64,000 nucleotides of DNA from Amoebidium appalachense (GCA_963693365.1 CAVNZM010000009.1:2668231-2732230); one strand, 5' to 3'; shown: positions 5,155-63,665, counted from the stretch's first letter. Program-made: numbers and translations. Notes: generated from the sequence alone by a model not told the origin.

Positions 5155-6454
5155 ACCACCACCACCACCACCACCACCACCACCACCACCACCACCACCA
5201 CACACACACACACGTACCCCCCCCCCCCCGCTTAACACACACCAACAAACACAAAACACGCACACATGCACACACATAGCACAGGCACACCCACGCACGC
5301 AAACAGGGATGGGGTTGGGGGGAGCAGTATGCAAACATGCACACACACATGCCCACACGTTCTGACACTCACCCGCGCATAAACACGCACATATTAGAAC
5401 CCACACACACGGGCAGACAAACTAGAGTCACATGTAAACATGCACACGCAGCACATATATTCTCTTGACACCCGCCACCACACTCAGAACCCACGTTTCC
5501 AACAAACACAACATCACTGTAATCGATCCTACTGATTGAAAGCAATAAACTACCATCAGTATAAGAGAGGACAATTCGCCCAATTTGCCCCGCCTCTGAC
5601 ATCATATTATGTGACAGGGCTTGGAGCACCGGGATTGGTCCATCCTGGCAGGCAGCCGAATGTTCCCATAGCGCACAGCACACTTACCAAAGTAGGAAAG
5701 TTGGGAGAGGGCCACTATGGTGTCGTCTACTTCGGTATATGCCCCCCCCCCCCCCCCCCCCCCACAACAACCAAACAAAAAAATCCGTTTCGCTCCGTCT
5801 CTGTGTATTTTGTGGTGTTTTGTCTTTCGTCTTTTGATGATTTCTCCAATTCCATAGATCCCACTCTCTAATGCATACATCCCCCCCCCCCCCCCCCCCC
5901 CCCCCCAAAAAAGCAAGACTTGACTGAGGGGTTAAAGGATTGAAGCCCAATCTTTATGGAGGCATAGGAAGGCGCCCTGATGATGGCCTCTGTTCATCTT
6001 CTGCCTGCCCAATTGGGTTTAGTCTGTTAAGTTTTATTTTCTTACGTTTTTCCATGTCTTTGCTTACACGATTGTCACTCTCTAATGCATCTATCATCAT
6101 TTCCATCCCTCCCCCCCCCCCCCTCCCCCTCCCCCCCCCCCCCCCCCCCCCCCCCCCCCTTTCTCCCTTTCCTCATCCCCCTCTTTGCCGCCACCCACAA
6201 TTTCCGTCAACCCACACACTTTTCCCCGGGATGTTTTGTGTTTTGTCTCGATGTCTCCTCCTCCATACTTCCAACCCTCTAGTATTGCATGCATCCCCCC
6301 CCCCCCCCCCCCCCCCCCCCCCAGGTCTTATGAAGGAACAGGGCAGTGTGTATGCAGTGGCTGTCAAGGAGCTATGGGATTGCATCTCAGATGAGGCTGC
6401 AGCACTCACACTCAAAGAGGCCGTACGTGTCCCTCCCCCCCCCCTCCCCCCCCC

Positions 6455-6525
<71 letters not shown>

Positions 6526-6533
6526 AGCCTGCA

Positions 6534-6589
<56 letters not shown>

Positions 6590-7130
6590 TTTTTGGATAT
6601 TGTATGTGTACCGCTTTAATTTCGTCTTTTGATGTCTCCGCTTTCAAGATTCCAAAACTTTGACACCCTGTAATGTGTACATTATTTCCCCCCCTCCTCT
6701 CCCTCTCCCCCCCGGATCTCCTTTTCCACTCTTCCTTCTGACCTCAATGGGTTGATTGATTTTCCTGGTAAATGACATTTGCATGTGTGTGTCGGCTTTG
6801 ATAATGATTTAAGGAAAAAGTAATGATGGGAATCCCCACCTCCCCTCGATGTGGGTTTGGTTACCTGTGGGTGCAAATTTCTTTGACCCATTCTTATTGG
6901 TGCAAATTCAATTAACACATTTCTACTGGCACAAAACCGATTGACCCATTTTTCATTGGTTCAAAAATCAGGCGTTGATGGGCGAGCTCGATCATCCCAA
7001 CGTGCTGCGATGTGTCGGGACTACGTCTGAAAAGAGACGCCCACTGATGATAGTGATGGAGTTGATGGGGTTGGGCAGCCTACAGGACTATCTGAGAATA
7101 CGGTGGGTGGGTGTGGGTGTGTGGGTGTGT

Positions 7131-7188
<58 letters not shown>

Positions 7189-7782
7189 TGGGGGGGGGGG
7201 GGGGAGGGAGGGGGGGTGGGGGGTGGGTGGGTGGGTGGGTAGGTGTCTATCTTTGGAGTGCGTGTGTGTGTGTGTGTGTGTGTTTGGGGGGGGGGGGGGA
7301 GGGAGGGGGAGAACTCTCCCCCGGGAGGGAGAGGGGTAGGCTGGGTGGGTGGGTGGGTGGGTGGGTAGTGGGATGCGGGGGAGGAGGGGGGGGGGTCAAA
7401 GTGTGTGTGTGTGTGTGTGTTTGTGTGTGTGTGTTTGTGTGTGTGTGTTTGTGTGTTAGGTGTGTGTACGTGTGCGTGTGAGTGTTTTTTTTGGGGGGGT
7501 GCGGGTGGGGGGGGGGGGGGGGGGGGGGTGGATGGGTTGGCGTGTGAAGCGTCTAAGGGGTTTGGGGTTGAGTTCATGTGAATTCGAGTTTGAGGGGATG
7601 GGGACGTGGCTCAGTGTACTGGTGTGTGAAGGCATGTCTGTGTGTGTGTCTGTGTCACTGTGTGCCCACAAGGTTAAGGTTTACCTTTTCCCACATCCAA
7701 CCTCCCTCCGCCCTCCCTTACTCCCCCCCCCCCCACTTTCCCCCTCCTCCTGCCCAACACCTTTCCACCACACACATGCGCG

Positions 7783-7827
<45 letters not shown>

Positions 7828-7931
7828 CTCGCCCCTCCCCTTCCCCCTCTCCCCCCCTCTCCCCCTTCTCCACACACACAACACACACGCCCCCCCTCCC
7901 CCCCCCCCCCCCCCCCCCAAACCATCCCACA

Positions 7932-7968
<37 letters not shown>

Positions 7969-8205
7969 ATACACAGCAAGAAGAGAGAGCAACCAGTCAG
8001 TGTATCTACCCGTCTCCATGTTGCCTATCAGATCGCACAGGGTATGGCCTATCTATCTTCTAAGGGCCTAGTCCACAGAGATTTGGCAGCTAGAAACTGT
8101 TTGCTGGCCGATGGAGACTCATCAACTTTCGGTAAAAACTCCCCCTCCTCACCTCCCCGTCCCCAACAACCCTATCCCCAATCTTTCCCCCCGATTTCCC
8201 CCCCT

Positions 8206-8237
<32 letters not shown>

Positions 8238-10522
8238 CCCCCTCCCCCCCCCCTTGGGCCCTCCCTGAGGATGGGCTCTGCTTATGACGCATACTGTGCG
8301 CATGGCTGATGCTGCATACTTGAATGTTTGCCTTTGCATGTGTCCTGCACCATGCTTCTCATCGTGTATGCGTACTTCGTACTGTGTTCCGCATTCAAAA
8401 CCCCCCCTGTCTTCTTTCAGAGGTGTCCTTTCAGGACAGACCACTGTGTGGAGACATCTTTACTTCCATGCAACCGGGCATGGTTGCTCTGTGTCGTGCA
8501 TCTGTAAGCACATACGCGTTTGTCGCTGCACTGCATTAGTTTGCACATACATCTTCACCGTTTTGCTCACCTTGCTTGCATAAGCAACCCTGCTCGTCTT
8601 TGATCAAGACGGGTTGACCCACCCAAGTTCAGTTGATGCTGCTGTCTGAGTTGGAGCGTCGTATATACGCGGGCTAAGGGGTCGAAACTCAGACGCAATT
8701 GATGACTTGGGCCCTCCCTGAGGATGGGCTCTGCTTATGACGCATACTGTGCGCATGGCTGATGCTGCATACTTGAATGTTTGCCTTTGCATGTGTCCTG
8801 CACCATGCTTCTCATCGTGTATGCGTACTTCGTACTGTGTTCCGCATTCAAAACCCCCCCTGTCTTCTTTCAGAGGTGTCCTTTCAGGACAGACCACTGT
8901 GTGGAGACATCTTTACTTCCATGCAACCGGGCATGGTTGCTCTGTGTCGTGCATCTGTAAGCACATACGCGTTTGTCGCTGCACTGCATTAGTTTGCACA
9001 TACATCTTCACCGTTTTGCTCACCTTGCTTGCATAAGCAACCCTGCTCGTCTTTGATCAAGACGGGTTGACCCACCCAAGTTCAGTTGATGCTGCTGTCT
9101 GAGTTGGAGCGTCGTATATACGCGGGCTAAGGGGTCGAAACTCAGACGCAATTGATGACTTGGGCCCTCCCTGAGGATGGGCTCTGCTTATGACGCATAC
9201 TGTGCGCATGGCTGATGCTGCATACTTGAATGTTTGCCTTTGCATGTGTCCTGCACCATGCTTCTCATCGTGTATGCGTACTTCGTACTGTGTTCCGCAT
9301 TCAAAACCCCCCCTGTCTTCTTTCAGAGGTGTCCTTTCAGGACAGACCACTGTGTGGAGACATCTTTACTTCCATGCAACCGGGCATGGTTGCTCTGTGT
9401 CGTGCATCTGTAAGCACATACGCGTTTGTCGCTGCACTGCATTAGTTTGCACATACATCTTCACCGTTTTGCTCACCTTGCTTGCATAAGCAACCCTGCT
9501 CGTCTTTGATCAAGACGGGTTGACCCACCCAAGTTCAGTTGATGCTGCTGTCTGAGTTGGAGCGTCGTATATACGCGGGCTAAGGGGTCGAAACTCAGAC
9601 GCAATTGATGACTTGGGCCCTCCCTGAGGATGGGCTCTGCTTATGACGCATACTGTGCGCATGGCTGATGCTGCATACTTGAATGTTTGCCTTTGCATGT
9701 GTCCTGCACCATGCTTCTCATCGTGTATGCGTACTTCGTACTGTGTTCCGCATTCAAAACCCCCCCTGTCTTCTTTCAGAGGTGTCCTTTCAGGACAGAC
9801 CACTGTGTGGAGACATCTTTACTTCCATGCAACCGGGCATGGTTGCTCTGTGTCGTGCATCTGTAAGCACATACGCGTTTGTCGCTGCACTGCATTAGTT
9901 TGCACATACATCTTCACCGTTTTGCTCACCTTGCTTGCATAAGCAACCCTGCTCGTCTTTGATCAAGACGGGTTGACCCACCCAAGTTCAGTTGATGCTG
10001 CTGTCTGAGTTGGAGCGTCGTATATACGCGGGCTAAGGGGTCGAAACTCAGACGCAATTGATGACTTGGGCCCTCCCTGAGGATGGGCTCTGCTTATGAC
10101 GCATACTGTGCGCATGGCTGATGCTGCATACTTGAATGTTTGCCTTTGCATGTGTCCTGCACCATGCTTCTCATCGTGTATGCGTACTTCGTACTGTGTT
10201 CCGCATTCAAAACCCCCCCCCCCCCGCCCGCCCCCTCCCCCTTACCCTTGTAGATGGCTTGGGTCTTCCCTGGGCGCTATGTATGATGCACATTCCGTTG
10301 TGTGCACTCATTTTGCACAATCTGCGATGTGTTTGTCCGTCGTGAATGTGTCCTTCGTACTCTGTAAGGCATCCTAACCTCTCCTTCCCCTCCTCACACA
10401 CCTTTCCCATTACACACACACACACACACACATACACACACACACACCCATACATACACACACACACACACACAACCAACACACACGACATACGCATGCG
10501 CGCACACGCACACATACTCAAA

Positions 10523-10553
<31 letters not shown>

Positions 10554-10703
10554 GTACGCACACGTGTTCACACACACGTGCAGACAACCCCATTGTCAAG
10601 GTTTCAGACTTCGGCATGGCAAGACATATGCTTGGTGACCAATATATCACCTCGAAAAGAGGTTGGTTGCCCCGCCCTCCCCCTTCTCCCCCCTTCCCCC
10701 CCC

Positions 10704-10757
<54 letters not shown>

Positions 10758-11395
10758 ACCACCACCACCACCATCACCACCACCCATTCCGCCCTGCCCC
10801 TCCCCCCCCCCCCCCCCCCCCCCCCCCCCAACCCCTCCCCCAGGCCCCACAAGCCCTTCCGTCACAAGCCCATTCCACCTCCCCATATCCCCATCTCTTC
10901 AGGGTGTTTTCCTTATCAGTCTGTCTGGCTCGATGTTGTAAAAATTGTGGGTCCGAACAGGTTGAAGCCTGTCTGGGCCTGGGCTGAATTTTGGAAACCT
11001 TAAATCTGCGTGTGTTTTGACCCCTCCCTTCTGTCTCTGTGGTTTAGTTACGAACATGAGTGAATGGGCCAAGACTCATTGAGCTAAGGAATGCAACTTG
11101 AGGCGTATGAGCCATTCTGATTGGGTGGTTATTTCAGGAGCCTTGGCGGTGGCGTGGATGGCGCCAGAGGTGATCGTGCAGGGACAGTGCAGCGAATTCA
11201 GTGATGTGTGGAGCTTTGGCGTGGTCATGTGGGAGGTGGGTGCAGGCACATGCACGCAGACACATGCACATACATTCACACACATGTACGCATATACACA
11301 CATGTGCACGGACATGCATGAACACTTGAACTAACACGCAAAAACAGGCGCTCTCTCACACACTCACACACGCACATCCCCCCTCCCTTCCCCCC

Positions 11396-11426
<31 letters not shown>

Positions 11427-11546
11427 ACACACATACACACACACATACACATACACACTCAGGGGGAAAAGGTGGGAAGGGAGGGAGAGGTGGAGAAAGA
11501 CGAAACATACATACACACACACATTCACGCACGCACACACACACCG

Positions 11547-11587
<41 letters not shown>

Positions 11588-12294
11588 ACACACCCCACCC
11601 CCCCGACACACACACACACACATCCATGCACCCACACACACATCCGCAGACGCGCGCGCGCAGACACCCACACGCACACACACACATGCGCACGTGTACA
11701 TCCACACACAGTCAGGGAGAGTAAGAGACTCTACGTATCACAATGGAGAGGCTCCAGGGTTTAATACCTTACCCACAGTATCCCTGTCACATTTACACAC
11801 TGCAAGAAGCACACTCGATCGCTCTGGCTAAGCACACACCCTCAGTTTGTGAGTGCACACCAACCATTGTAACACATGCACGGAAAAATCATTTTGGAAT
11901 GCTTTCGGGAAAATTTACACCTTACCCCTGCCCTCCTTCCCGCCCCTCTTTTTTTTTTTTTTTTTTTTTTTTTGATGTGATCTGACCGAACATGCAAAGG
12001 TTGCATTAACTTCAGGTACCTTTTTTGTTTTTAGACTTCGAGGCCACAAGTGCTATATGCCTGCATGCCTGACTTTTGCCCAATCACAGATATTTATGGA
12101 TGCAGCAACCCCGTTTGCAAGAGAAGATGTAGGATCTCCCCCCGCCCCCTCAACGCACACACACACGCACACACACACACACAAAAGAAAAAGAAAAAGA
12201 AAAAAAAGAAAGGAAAAGAAAAAGGAGGAAGATACGAAGAACTCGAAGAAACAGGGAGCCGGTTTTCTTTTGAGGGCAGGAGGTGGGGAAAGGG

Positions 12295-12338
<44 letters not shown>

Positions 12339-12506
12339 TTGTTAACGTATTTTGTGGTTCGTTTGTATTCCAGATGACAAAGAAAGTGTAGGGGTGTGTG
12401 GTGGGGAGGTCAGGGAAGGAAGAGCCACCCCCGGTCCCTCCATCCCCAACACAATTGCAACACCCTTGCACATGCACCTGCACGTGCGCACACACACACA
12501 CACACA

Positions 12507-12572
<66 letters not shown>

Positions 12573-13128
12573 TTCTGTCCCCCCCCCCCCCCCCCCCCCC
12601 CCCCGTCTGTCTGTCTGTCTATATCCCTCTCCTCCTCCCTCTCCCTCCCCCCACCTCATCCCCACCCCACCCCCCTTCCTCGTTCAAGCTCTTGAGATTT
12701 GCGACAGGGGTAACAGGTTTATCTATCCGATGTCACTAATCATTCATCTAAGTTTTCTTCTCCAATTATCGGGTGGCAACTCTGAAAAGTCTCTTGCACA
12801 GAGGTGCTAAAGACTTATCTACTCAATGGAGTTTTTATATAGTATATATGCTTCCGATCAATGTCATTGCCCATCTTTTATTACACCGTTTATCCAAATT
12901 TCTCTCCCATCTAAATTTCTCATGTATACATATGTCTCATATGTCTAAACTCTCATAATTCCGTATCTCGTATATCTAAATATTTCATATATCGATTTTT
13001 CTGTAATTAAATATCTCATATATCCAAATATCTCCCACAGAAACGTACAGTGGGTCATCGTGTAGCCTCAGGCAACCTTCGGCTTCGCGCCCCTTCAAAC
13101 TGCCCACCAGTACTCTCCCCCTCCCTCC

Positions 13129-13173
<45 letters not shown>

Positions 13174-13685
13174 CATTCTCACCACCATCTCCACCAACCC
13201 CACCCCCACCATCACACAACGCACACGCATCCGACACAGACGCAGCCTACTAACTAAACTCCTTCAAACACTCGTTTTGCATAAATGGCCTATACTTTAT
13301 ATTGACAAGTAAGAATCGATACAAACTTCTTGGATATTTGGTGTGTGTGTTTGCTGTGGGGGGGGGGGGGGGGAGGGGGGGGAGGGGGGAGAGGGCAGGG
13401 GGACGGGGAGGCGGGGAGGCGGAGGCGGAGGCGGAGCGGAGGGGGGGGGCGGGGGGGGGAGGTGGGCGGGAGAGGGCAGGGGGAAGGGGAGGCGGGGAGG
13501 TGGAGGCGGAGCGGAGGGGGGGAGGGGGGGGGGGGGGGGGGGGGGGGGTGAATGGAAGGATGCTGCATGGAGGTGAATATTGCTGTTTCATTTGAGCTCA
13601 AGAATGGACCCACATTTACGCCCTTGCACATGCACATACTCATGGCTTGCATGTGCGGACACACGTGCCACACACACACGCGCGC

Positions 13686-13732
<47 letters not shown>

Positions 13733-14416
13733 AGGTACAGAGAATGATGTGGGACTGCTGGCAGCCCGTACCCAATCAGAGGCCACGGTTTAGCGAACTG
13801 GTTGGAAGGCTGGCAGAGATTTTTGCGGCACAAAAACCAGCGAAGATACAGAAAGTAGGTGTCCGAATTCTCTAGCTTCTTCCTTCCTTTTTATTTCTTG
13901 TTTCCTTCCTTACTTTTCTTTTTTTTTCTGATTTGCTTTTTTATACGTGTGTGCGGTTGTGAGAGAGAGAGGGGGGGGGGGGGGGATGGGGATGGGAATT
14001 AAAAAACTAGAAAACTAAGCCAGAAACCGGAGCAAGAGAAGGATGGATGGTATTCCAATAACAATTTTCCTTGCGGGATACATACGTCATACCTGGGTGG
14101 TGGCTTGCACTATTCATCGAATTTTAAAGAAGGTAAAAAGTCTATAAGGCTCACACCTTTTTTTTTAATCCAAAACAGCTGCCGACCGGCGAAATTGAAC
14201 TGACAGAGGCCAAACCAAATGAAGTCATGAAGAGTGAAAAACCGCAAGTCTCATCCCGTGTTCCTGATCAGGTATAAAACCCTCCCTGCCACCGTCACAC
14301 ACAGATGCGCTTCTAAAGAGAGAGAGAGAGCGGGGGTGGGGCCGAGTGAGAAGGGAGGGAGGGAGAAAGGGAGGGAGGGAGGAGTCCCCACCAAAGCACA
14401 CACCCGCCCGCGCGCG

Positions 14417-19841: not shown

Positions 19842-20957
19842 TCAATCGTGTTTACCCTTGGGGCAATATGCAACGTTAACACCACTATGGCCCCTCCATG
19901 TTCGTACCACCTCAGGCCACGGAAACAGAACCGACCAAATCCCATTACCAAAAATAGGCGTCAGAAGCAGATTCCATTTGCTCTCATGTTCACATCGATT
20001 CTTTAAACACTCGAGCAAAAAAGACGGAAAGCGACGCCAAGAAACCCGTAATTTTCGTAGGAATTGCATGGTGGAAAGGTTACAAAACAGGAGAAACAAC
20101 TGTACAAACAGAAGATACCCCACACAAAAACACAACATAAAAAGCGGTACGAATATAATCGAAAGACCCAATCCGAAATGTCGACATCTCTCCGTCCTCA
20201 CTGCTGATTGGCGCATCGACCCGGTGCCTTGTGACATTGGACCAGTAAAAACGCTCAAAAATGGAAAAATCGAGTCAGAGATTGGTCCGTTTTTACCCGC
20301 CGTCGCCGCCATATACGGTTGCACAAGGCAATCCGAGAAAATTGGTCCCGTAATTACCAGCGCGTAGGCTAGACTGAATGCAGCGTAGCATAAAAACAAC
20401 AGGAAAAACGCATAATTGTCGCGCCCGACACACCCATTGGTGAACGGGCAGTGGTGATCTACTAGATCGACACACTTTCTGCACACCCGGCAATGTTCCG
20501 CGCCTGGGGGTTTATCCCGGTTGCAGTATCGGCAGAACCTCGTCTGTGATTGGTTAATCTCCGACACACTGGCTGGATTTGAAGCTGCTTTTGAAGTAGG
20601 AAGAGGGCCTGATGTGGGTGCTTGTACAGGTGGGATTTCCGTGCTCGTGGGGTCTATTTGCTGCGTGTTGGGGGTATTCAAAGTTTGTGAAGTCGCGGGT
20701 TTGGACCCTCCTGAGCCTGAAAGGGGAAAAATATGTGTCAGAATACGGGTAAAAGGCAGGTAAAACGAGACTCAGTGTGGACTGATTCGTTTGCATAACC
20801 GCCTTAACGGGAGTGTCTTTAGGGCGGTAGTTTTGGTGGTTTGTAATGTTTACATAATGGAGGGGTGTGTCCGTGTGTCTGTTGGTGTGTGTGGACATGG
20901 AGGGAGGGTTTTTGAGTGGTAATGAGGTGTGCGGGTATGGGGCCAATGAGCTCTTGT

Positions 20958-22979: not shown

Positions 22980-23961
22980 GACTACTGTAAAGGATTGTCG
23001 GATATGGGCCCCGCGGGAAAACAATATTTTCTCTTTATAAATGCCTGCTGCTAGTGAACGACGGATGCATTAGGCCGGTTTTATAAAAAGAATAAGGGAA
23101 AGAAAAAAACTTAGCACGCAGTAATTTGTGTTGTGTATACATATAAAGCGTCAGCTCAGACTTTGAAAAATGCATGAAGCTGATAACAGTAACTTTTTCT
23201 GGCGAGCTACATAGTGTGGCCCAGTTTGTTTGTTCGAGTCCGTTTTTGCGCCGAAATCGGTGCGCCAAACTCTGAAGTGCCAAGCTGAGCGTTAATTGGT
23301 TGTTGGCGCATCGATTACGTCATCATACCTCGGGAATAAAAATGCCGTCTTTCTGAAGTACGAATAGAGAGTGGCGAGGTTCACGCGGCACAAGTGCATT
23401 TCCCTTCCATACCGGCCAGCAGGTAAAGGAATAGTAAGGGGATTGGCCATCTGCATGGACATATGTATAGAGTTCGCCTGTAACGGTATCCGATGATCTA
23501 TATCGGTGTATATGACAGCCGGGCGCGGACGGAGCTACTGTAGACACTAGATGCATGGTAGTATCGATATCAGAGTCCTTGCAAACTTTGAATCAGGAAG
23601 ATTAATTAATGTAACTCGAACGTATGGCTTGGAAAGGTCATGTTTATGTGGTAGCTCCAGGCCCCGGGGAAAAGAATTTGCTTTTTACACGCGTCCATGC
23701 CAATCTTCCGTGTATTATATATACACGCTGGCGCAAGCGCATTAATTCGTGTGCGTTGGTGTGCGTGCATTCCCAGACCCATGCATATGGTGTGTGTGTC
23801 TCTCTCTCTCTGCGTGTGTGTGAGCATGCACGCGTGTTTCGCGTGTCTGTGTGTATATACTTTCTTCTTTCTTTCCTTTCCAGCCCCCCCCCCCCCCCCC
23901 CCCCCCTCTTTCTTTTCTTTTTCTTCTCTCTCTCTATGTGTGTGTGTGTGTGTTTTTTTTT

Positions 23962-24644: not shown

Positions 24645-43192
<18,548 letters not shown>

Positions 43193-44073
43193 CTTAGACC
43201 CCTTCCACCACCCTTCCGAGCAAAACCTGTTATAACAACGTCTTTTCCCCCCAACCACTATATAACTACGCCTTCTCGAGCTCCCCCCTCCAAGGCTTCA
43301 ACACGAGTCGACCTTCACACACTGAGTTACCGAAGCCGCTGGCGGTTGCGGCCCAGATTATCACTTTTGCGTAAAAATCCGAAAATCACGTGCCCAATGA
43401 CGTCATATGCCTCTACTGACTGGATAGTTTTTGGCGCCAAATATTTGAATTTGAGACCTTGTACAAGTTGTCAGCGCCGCACTCAGCACAGCCATCAGCC
43501 ACAAAACACGATACAAAAACGCCTTCCGGTTTTGTTCTTGTTTTTGTATTTTTGCCAGTTTATATAGCTGTACTTTTTTCCTTCTTTTACAGCTATATGA
43601 GTATGAGGATTATTGGCACTCAGACACCTACTTTTGTAGCGGCTTTTCCGTCCTAATATTAGCAAGCGATTTTCATCGGGGCAGAACGAAATGCTAAGAA
43701 GGGGCTTCGTTATGGTAAAGTCAAGTTAAATTTACCACACATAAATTCTTGATATATATAGATTTAGCTTATTTACAGTACGTATGATGACCATGAGCCT
43801 TGACTATGCGTTCATGAGCCCTTAGTCACAATAACCTTTCACAGCATCGTCTGGCGGCCTTCATCCCTTAAGTTCGTAACCCAACACACCGTTTTTTCTT
43901 TAGCACTCATTCTCTTGTAACTTTCTTCGTTTCTTTGCTCCTTCTGCTTATTTATCTCAGAATTTTTCACCGCATGGAAAAGAAAACCCTTGTATTTGTG
44001 GATACAGCAAAGAGCATGGATTAGTACTTTTCACAGGGCAAAACGGAAGTTTTCGGAAGGCCAGCTGGGCACA
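43193..44073. promoter_or_regulatory. Divergent NCBP1/RMI1 promoter region with an E-box, CCAAT, CRE, E2F palindrome and CHR-like motif cluster
   Basis: CACGTG 43387-92, CCAAT 43394-98, TGACGTCA 43398-405, TTTGGCGCCAAA 43430-41 and TTTGAA 43444-49, lying between two head-to-head ATGs 882 bp apart. Confidence 0.6.

Positions 44074-50892
<6,819 letters not shown>

Positions 50893-51862: not shown

Positions 51863-63665
<11,803 letters not shown>

Follow-up and report, generated by a model that had tools for sequence, protein, structure and literature searches.

The 453-nt repeat described here folds into a structure that contains all conserved sequence blocks of the hammerhead ribozyme in the non-circular order S-G-C. 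We consider the fold likely, with a probability of roughly 0.6 judged from the sequence, to be the domain by which a retrozyme-like non-autonomous retroelement cleaves itself, with a predicted cut after U8652. With the same confidence, our most likely interpretation is a retrozyme-like repeat with a newly wired hammerhead ribozyme. The analysis was performed on a 64,000-nucleotide (64 kb) stretch of Amoebidium appalachense DNA, referred to as the window, which is eukaryotic and intron-rich and contains poly-C and CA tracts. Features of the repeat are collected in Table 1, where v1 denotes the array unit. Position labels on the element (G10.1, U16.1, H17, C3-A9 etc.) follow the hammerhead numbering.

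Table 1 Features of the element and its copies. Positions are counted from the first nucleotide of the window.
Feature	Position	Strand	Remarks
Head-to-tail array	8253..10219	+	453-nt unit x4.3, copies identical; intron of tyrosine-kinase gene
One full unit (retrozyme-like monomer)	8407..8859	+	End ...TTCAAA adjoining poly-C
Closing helix P1	8579-86/8732-39	+	From sequence
P1/P1b 5' strand	8579..8590	+	Partner 8726-8739; predicted to hold split core strand together
P2 hairpin, palindromic TGATCA loop	8592..8614	+	Second helix inserted between A9 and G10.1
Stem II 5' strand (pseudoknot strand of the preliminary description)	8616..8620	+	G10.1 = 8616; crossing helix with 8679-83
P3 5' strand (stem I/II bridging helix of type SGC and K-turn C-helix)	8622..8631	+	Arm pairs 8622-27/8706-11
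K-turn bulged strand	8632..8637	+	3-nt bulge, G1b A2b U3b
Stem III (long helix)	8640-51/8687-97	+
Block S	8640..8655	+	Stem III 5' strand, U16.1 8651, H17 8652, proximal stem I 8653-55
Predicted cleavage	Between 8652 and 8653 (after U8652)	+	From hammerhead blocks
P5, weak hairpin inserted in stem I	8656..8670	+	10-nt palindrome 8660-69; candidate dimerisation site
Distal stem I GGG	8671..8673	+	Pairs with 8712-14
Block G	8679..8697	+	Stem II 3' strand (C11.1 = 8683), G12-A13-A14-A15.1 8684-87, stem III 3' strand
K-turn non-bulged strand and P3 3' strand	8700..8711	+
Rival hairpin P6	8711-29	+	Alternative to stem I; CUGAGGA in loop
Block C, first half	8712..8725	+	Stem I 3' strand 8712-17, C3-A9 CUGAGGA 8718-24, bulged U 8725
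P1b/P1 3' strand	8726..8739	+
Diverged 5'-truncated copy	10248..10383	+	Directly 3' of array
5'-truncated v1-type copy	31419..31568	-	94.6% identical; poly-C, NCBP1 intron
Variant v2, complete fold	36205..36720	-	G10.1 36419, U16.1 36385, G12 36356, C3 36322
Two old fragments	53372..54422	-	53372-53418: CUGANGA kept, N7 changed; 54347-54422: GGGUC-GAAA kept
Truncated copy	59176..59291	-	Perfect P6 hairpin, core strand broken
v2-type copy, truncated inside P1	59967..60205	-	All hammerhead blocks present; fold region 60055-60205 matches v2
v3	62086..62460	-	5' half v2-like; 3' half degenerate: G12 changed, no CUGANGA
Two stacked 5'-truncated copies	62473..62783	-	Single poly-C site

Hammerhead blocks in the repeat

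The crossing helix of the fold ends in C and is followed by GAAA, the final A of which pairs with U8651; U8652 and GGA come next. UCC followed by CUGAGGA, thirty bases downstream, corresponds to a stem I strand and the core strand. CUGANGA with a stem I strand before it is found at 8718-8724 and at 36322, and GAAA (8684-87) lies between stems II and III, with an A15.1-U16.1 pair (U8651) and an H17 other than G (U8652). Stem III has 9 and 13 uninterrupted pairs, stem I consists of 3+3 bp with a palindromic hairpin inserted after the third pair (6 bp in both v1 and v2), and stem II, of 5-6 bp, is formed with a separate strand 110 nt upstream. The predicted cleavage triplet of the element is GUU, which speaks against a hammerhead, in which it is usually GUC. 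The helices named in the preliminary description, including the crossing pairing, were all found in place. It had missed stem I and the catalytic core, and its view that the fold belongs to no known family is superseded by the assignment of the hammerhead blocks.

A hit to a known RNA in Rfam had also been allowed for, and no match at gathering score was found in the 64 kb. The type I model RF00163 independently aligned the crossing helix of v2 and GAAAC as stem II at a sub-threshold 14.2 bits vs 34 (E 3.6), and for hammerhead types I, II and III (Rfam CL00010) neither the nested circular permutation nor the gathering score was found. Other Rfam output consisted of one irrelevant match at E<=10, at the start of the array, and four weak matches around v2. 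No tRNA or tmRNA was detected. U3 or box C/D snoRNA, SECIS and HDV-like RNA were compared by eye with their consensus features and were rejected, as were, likewise by eye, hairpin, twister, pistol and VS ribozymes, RNase P/MRP and telomerase RNA; none of these candidates had Rfam support.

A block descriptor, written after the motif had been seen, accepted any block order and required at least 6 bp in stem III and at least 3 bp in stem I. On both strands of the 64 kb it gave six matches, all in the order S-G-C and all in the element, namely the four array units, v2 and the v2-type copy at 60 kb. Among dinucleotide shuffles, a complete core was present in 13, 8 and 14 of 20,000 (0.04-0.07%). 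That the repeat is structured but carries the hammerhead motifs by chance, its palindromes acting on DNA or not at all, is the explanation to which we give the least weight. It would agree with the post hoc descriptor, with the modest folding-energy z-scores (v1 -2.4 and its reverse strand -3.4, v2 -0.9, whole unit -1.3) and with the abundance of 10-nt palindromes (1.9 per kb in the window). However, the rarity of the complete core among shuffles argues against chance, as do the changes that keep G.U pairs and favour the RNA strand, the three different palindromes at one place, and the agreement of register and strands with published SGC ribozymes (PMC10085705).

Comparison to type-SGC hammerheads

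The order S-G-C is a non-circular permutation for which Eckert et al. 2023 demonstrated cleavage (PMC10085705). In that work the three core blocks are assumed to be uninterruptible, which gives six possible orders, and the rows of the type-SGC variant run from a bridging helix through a stem I strand, CUGANGA, a bulged U, a stem II strand (often GACC) and 1-3 A to the bridging helix again, with a stem I of 6-7 bp (PMC10085705). Three of the published rows carry the v1 strands ACUUGGG, CUGAGGA-U-GACC and CCCAAGU in the same register (PMC10085705), and we therefore identified the arm as the bridging helix, the pseudoknot as stem II and the long helix as stem III. The element shares with HRIMA-1 and the SGC variants the S-G-C order, the bulged U between A9 and G10.1, a 5-6-bp stem II that is often GACC/GGUC, a 6-bp stem I, a short linker between stems I and II, a helix that joins the other sides of these two stems, and some near-identical strands (PMC10085705). 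In the element this last helix is P3, which shows covariation and pairs the sequence 5' of the stem I 3' strand with that 3' of the stem II 5' strand.

Block C of the element is not uninterrupted but split by P1 and P2, and we therefore filed the element as a variant of type SGC rather than as a member. In the predicted fold, its core strand breaks off at the bulged U that follows A9 and would be kept together by two additional helices; we infer that A9 runs into P1 and that G10.1 is reached from P2, which would create a four-way junction. The element also differs in the palindromic hairpin inside stem I, in a stem III of 13-14 bp, and in the K-turn that closes the end left open in SGC (PMC10085705). 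It is a eukaryotic nuclear repeat, whereas type-SGC RNAs are known so far from metatranscriptome contigs and none was reported in genomes of known organisms (PMC10085705). Known alignments have no insertion longer than 1-2 nt between CUGAnGA and its stems (PMC10085705), and the core insertions in Perreault et al. 2011 are of 1-2 nt only (PMC3088659). Hammerhead variants with additional helices have been reported, with three citations including PMC10085705 and PMC10162972 (PMC13725137), and an earlier precedent for a helix at A9/G10.1 may exist. In the accessible text of PMC10085705, 'kink' and 'palindrom' are absent from the main text and supplement, and ichthyosporean names from the supplement. 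The literature searched, covering few subscription papers, gave no account of the element or of a K-turn-closed split-core hammerhead.

The published rows also bear on whether the repeat could be an ordinary contiguous type-SGC hammerhead, in which the weak GGGCUC after A9 would be stem II and GACC an antagonist that turns the monomer off. We regard this as very improbable. After the bulged U, G10.1-C11.1 and a G.U pair are possible, and 5 of 6 positions pair in v1 (-7.0 kcal/mol). In both variants, however, a stem II placed directly (0-2 nt) after A9 has only 2 bp ahead of a G.G mismatch (position 3), and v2 forms only 4 of 6 pairs (-3.8). GACC/GGUC is stronger (-10.7 and -9.0) and covaries, and the bridging helix comes after it just as in the published SGC rows.

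Where the preliminary description had seen K-turn-like TGA/GA motifs, both complete variants show the sequence of a standard simple K-turn as defined by Huang and Lilley 2016 (PMC5061560), with a C helix and a 3-nt bulge followed by G1b.A1n and A2b.G2n. At the level of sequence, the 3b.3n position of v2 is A.G as in HmKt-7, whereas that of v1 is U.U and the -1 pair of the element is A-U instead of C-G (PMC5061560). The predicted K-turn would join stem III to the bridging helix. These two helices are far apart in the crystal structure, and their joining was flagged as difficult for zero-linker SGC examples (PMC10085705).

Covariation between variants

Only v1 and v2 served as complete variants for comparison, the copy at 60055-60205 matching v2 over the fold. 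Between them, six pairs are changed on both sides (one each in stem II, the bridging helix and stem I, and three in stem III) and four on one side (arm 1, long helix 3) with pairing kept; the long-helix pairs were counted with one bulge of v1 omitted manually. Pairs of non-standard type are confined to helix ends or their vicinity. In stem I, the third pair is A-U in v1 and G-C in v2. The compensatory changes reported earlier thus hold for the crossing helix, the arm and the long helix, and stem I, which had been overlooked, also has one. The closing helix and the TGATCA hairpin show no covariation because they are nearly identical in v1 and v2, and v3 can serve as a third row in its 5' half only, its 3' half being degenerate. 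In the uncurated alignment 93.5% of 153 cells are paired vs 29-45% when slid. The covariation score was reached by 12 of 500 shuffles and the number of two-sided pairs by 50 of 500, and this pair-counting result is only suggestive since the rows are few and related and the structure was derived from the same rows. When the unit is folded as a circle, P3 and the long helix pair at ~0.99, and P1 and P2 at <=0.1. The earlier proposal of a selected tertiary RNA structure with a K-turn is supported. Among contigs of the sequencing runs described below there are 21 variable sites, with none in 17 core positions (p 0.44) and none in 18 palindrome positions (p 0.18), neither being significant; one common variant, at 8611, disrupts a pair of P2.

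A non-catalytic RNA domain (a signal for reverse-transcriptase recognition, packaging or dimerisation) that descended from a type-SGC hammerhead and no longer cuts, its CUGAGGA lying in the loop of P6, is in our opinion unlikely, although it deserves more weight than the alternatives above. The P6 hairpin that can bury CUGAGGA has -9.4 and -6.8 kcal/mol vs -5.2 and -6.0 for the proximal stem I duplex, and is predicted at a pairing probability of 0.6 by nested folding, which cannot show stems I and II. CUGANGA is intact in 6 of the 15 regions examined; as to the other nine, truncation extends to it or beyond in several, four have diverged and one combines a perfect P6 (at 59291) with a broken core. 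Loss of the core strand in several diverged copies would suit a domain that has ceased to cut, as would the split core strand, unlike that of published rows (PMC10085705), and the harm that an active ribozyme could do in host introns. Copies without blocks S and G, however, face no ribozyme selection. In addition, T>C at 8715 between v1 and v2 is compensated in stem I and breaks a P6 pair, every core letter is identical in these variants although they are 81% alike overall, and in the fragment at 53372 CUGANGA is altered at the free N7 position only. The self-cleaving hammerhead remains our preferred reading.

Array and dispersed copies

The intron that hosts the array has GT near 8131 and AG near 10582, and v2 has an upstream part of ~255 nt that differs from v1. 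A profile made from eight copies of the window gave 22 matches at E<=1; leaving out three weak matches (E>=0.016) and the four complete units of the array gave a set of 15 fragments. The majority of these share the 3' end motif ...TCAAA/CTAA-CCC, all 15 have more C than G in their element-strand flanks, and 8 start at model positions 120-142, the 3' foot of the P3/K-turn helix. This cluster of 5' ends fits a stop of reverse transcriptase at a stable RNA helix, or CCC microhomology with the poly-C target. Stacked copies are found at several sites (62473-62783, 59967-60344 and, behind the array, 10248), and within the window there is no clear case of a copy starting at the predicted cut site. 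The functional strand had been taken to be the host-sense strand. It is the element-sense strand, which follows the poly-C strand and is usually host-sense, but the rule fails at 38055-38360 (+), where a 43-nt element fragment lies between probable minus-strand exons, followed by poly-C/poly-A/short AAACACAAATCC-like spacer x3.

Some copies deviate in the core strand. At 59255-59298 (-), P6 is a perfect 7-bp helix with both C3 and A9 changed, which reflects either a core-less subfamily or a quasi-palindrome correction. Copies near 31566, 54367 and 62587 (-) have CGAGGA in place of UGAGGA, at core position 4, as either a subfamily trait, a truncation junction or a CpG-related change.

The unit is present in 20 sequencing runs (7 studies, 5 organism codes), 2 of which are possibly the source of the window DNA; no RNA runs are among those listed as containing it. 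In four runs examined (3 studies), 9741, 5358, 6 and 6 contigs map to the unit. The head-to-tail junction occurs in all four (11, 4, 1 and 2 contigs, with varying linkers), so that the tandem form is not peculiar to the array locus. Contigs of 776 and 783 nt in runs X10 and X20 have the v2-type fold with ~500 nt upstream of P1, twice that of the v2 copy in the window, and may represent either a complete v2 monomer or the 3' terminus of an element of greater length.

Outside the window, exact patterns matched metagenome contigs 0 and 13 times and prokaryote genomes 13 times, with no match (0 and 0) in viral contigs. A loose block test was passed by 4 of the 26 pattern loci (L001, L012, L014, L017), the first three of which were judged to be coding DNA without stem II or P3. 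With these metagenome, viral and prokaryote patterns, and with L017 assessed by the block test only, no relative was recognised outside the host group of the element.

Every array unit has a 3'-splice-site-like stretch at its junction (8395-8420, +; TCAAAC branch-like, pyrimidines, CAG) and, 83 nt after these signals, a donor-like GTAAGC (8504-8509, +), and each unit could provide a cryptic exon within the host intron. The 43-codon frame of the unit (8408-8536, +) ends before the fold and has no Pfam family above cut-off, a CxC7 match below it (E 0.008) being probably noise. Another frame of 123 codons (54570-54938, -), directly upstream of a degenerate element copy, has no Pfam match. Host genes of the window encode a tyrosine kinase (5500-13900, +), a DHHC palmitoyltransferase (19845-20771, -), an NCBP1/MIF4G-like protein (27000-32000, -), a weakly RMI1-like protein (43921-44304, +) and a PI4 kinase (52000-58200, -). 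The Pfam families of their exons are tyrosine kinase, PI3/PI4 kinase, MIF4G-like (NCBP1) and DHHC. The sole match of the NCBP1 exon, at 81% identity, is a protein labelled Ihof, presumably for Ichthyophonus hoferi, so that the host is likely an ichthyosporean, a single-celled relative of animals; Physarum, considered at first, was rejected on this match. AT-AC (U12-type) introns extend from 58067 to ~57686 (-) and from 61936 to ~61523 (-), with the 5' end ATATCCGCT vs canonical ATATCCTT and with CCTTAAC/CCTTGAC branch sites before AC; a further ATATCCG is at 23005 (-).

Palindromes and proposed mechanism

As described earlier, the three variants have different apical palindromes of 10 nt each at the same place, all of them exact. 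P5 alone has -1.5 to -3.7 kcal/mol vs -15.8 to -19.5 for the homoduplex in the three variants, and dimerisation of the RNA via palindromes is plausible. Judging by helix lengths only, a lone monomer would find it hard to keep stems II and III coaxial with a 50-degree K-turn connecting stem III with a 9-bp helix that is itself fixed to stems I and II. This conflict leaves two solutions: a strand-swapped dimer, in which two units would exchange strands with the P5 palindrome as cross-bar, or a compact monomer, in which the extra junctions would provide the bends. That the K-turn keeps the lone monomer out of the active geometry and that the stem I palindrome lets two units swap strands into an active dimer is the least certain part of our interpretation, and we offer it tentatively, at somewhat less than even odds. 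We think it rather unlikely that the element embodies a fourth topological freedom of the hammerhead, with the catalytic strand in two pieces and rebuilt by a four-way junction, and with a K-turn lock such that only palindrome-paired dimers or tandem transcripts would cleave, possibly under control of a host protein of the 15.5K/L7Ae family.

In the proposed mechanism, transcripts of tandem units, arising together with the host intron, for example, or from the element itself, would be cut once per unit between 8652 and 8653 to yield 453-nt monomers, perhaps to be circularised. The reverse transcriptase of an autonomous partner, for which a Penelope-like element (PLE) is the best guess, would then copy the monomers back into poly-C tracts, and reverse transcription would often halt at the foot of the K-turn helix.

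Comparison to retrozymes and Penelope-like elements

The element resembles the non-LTR retrozymes of animals in being a non-coding repeat arranged head to tail, with a single ribozyme core in each unit, and in its dispersed copies, the published repeats being of 150-450 bp (453 in the element) (PMC7229834; 10.64898/2026.07.22.740005). Those retrozymes have type I hammerheads and a GC content under 45-50%, whereas the element lacks a type I hammerhead and has an SGC-like core and ~52% GC (PMC7229834; 10.64898/2026.07.22.740005). Vertebrate non-LTR retrozymes are reported to be excluded from introns, in contrast to the element, which sits in introns and is known here from DNA (PMC7229834; 10.64898/2026.07.22.740005). 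For animal retrozymes, circularisation and reverse transcription by a partner have been proposed (PMC7229834; 10.64898/2026.07.22.740005).

The 5' truncation, tandem insertion and (C)n/(CA)n targets of the element are of the Chlamys type. Non-autonomous Chlamys PLEs, e.g. MRC1, likewise show 5' truncation, multicopy head-to-tail arrangement, a preference for (C)n and no canonical hammerhead that could be detected (PMC8557442). The host of the element is probably an ichthyosporean, unlike the hosts of the Chlamys elements in that report (PMC8557442), and no sequence similarity was found to the 3' end of Chlamys-1_pPol from Physarum, the single Chlamys 3' end compared. Three motifs of the element were not found in the accessible supplement of PMC8557442, in which line breaks and cut sequence could hide matches. 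Among 14 frames scanned, Pfam gave no transposon or reverse-transcriptase family, and no autonomous partner was found in the window. The accessible text of PMC11244446 does not mention Penelope elements.

A palindromic loop and a base bulged 5' of stem II are shared with the minimal PLE hammerheads that act as dimers (PMC4209133). Their cleavage was proposed to take place in multimers and not in monomers, as in the tentative dimer model for the element; their palindrome caps a stem III of 1-2 bp, whereas stem III of the element is long and its palindromes are in stem I and P2 (PMC4209133).

Conclusions

The wiring predicted for self-cleavage is not described in the literature searched and would widen the known ways to build a hammerhead. 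A working split-core form would show that the assumption of uninterrupted blocks (PMC10085705) is too strict and that a class of ribozymes escapes screens by descriptor and by Rfam, and it bears on PLEs reported without canonical hammerheads or with only 'half cores' (PMC8557442). The element also offers a direct test of the question raised by Eckert et al. of how stem III may be joined to the I/II bridging helix, since both strands would meet via the K-turn. If our reading is right, a nuclear genome would harbour a non-circular permutation seen hitherto in metatranscriptome contigs. If the dimer model is also true, a genome-encoded, non-circularly permuted and dimer-gated ribozyme would drive an intron-resident retrozyme in a relative of animals.
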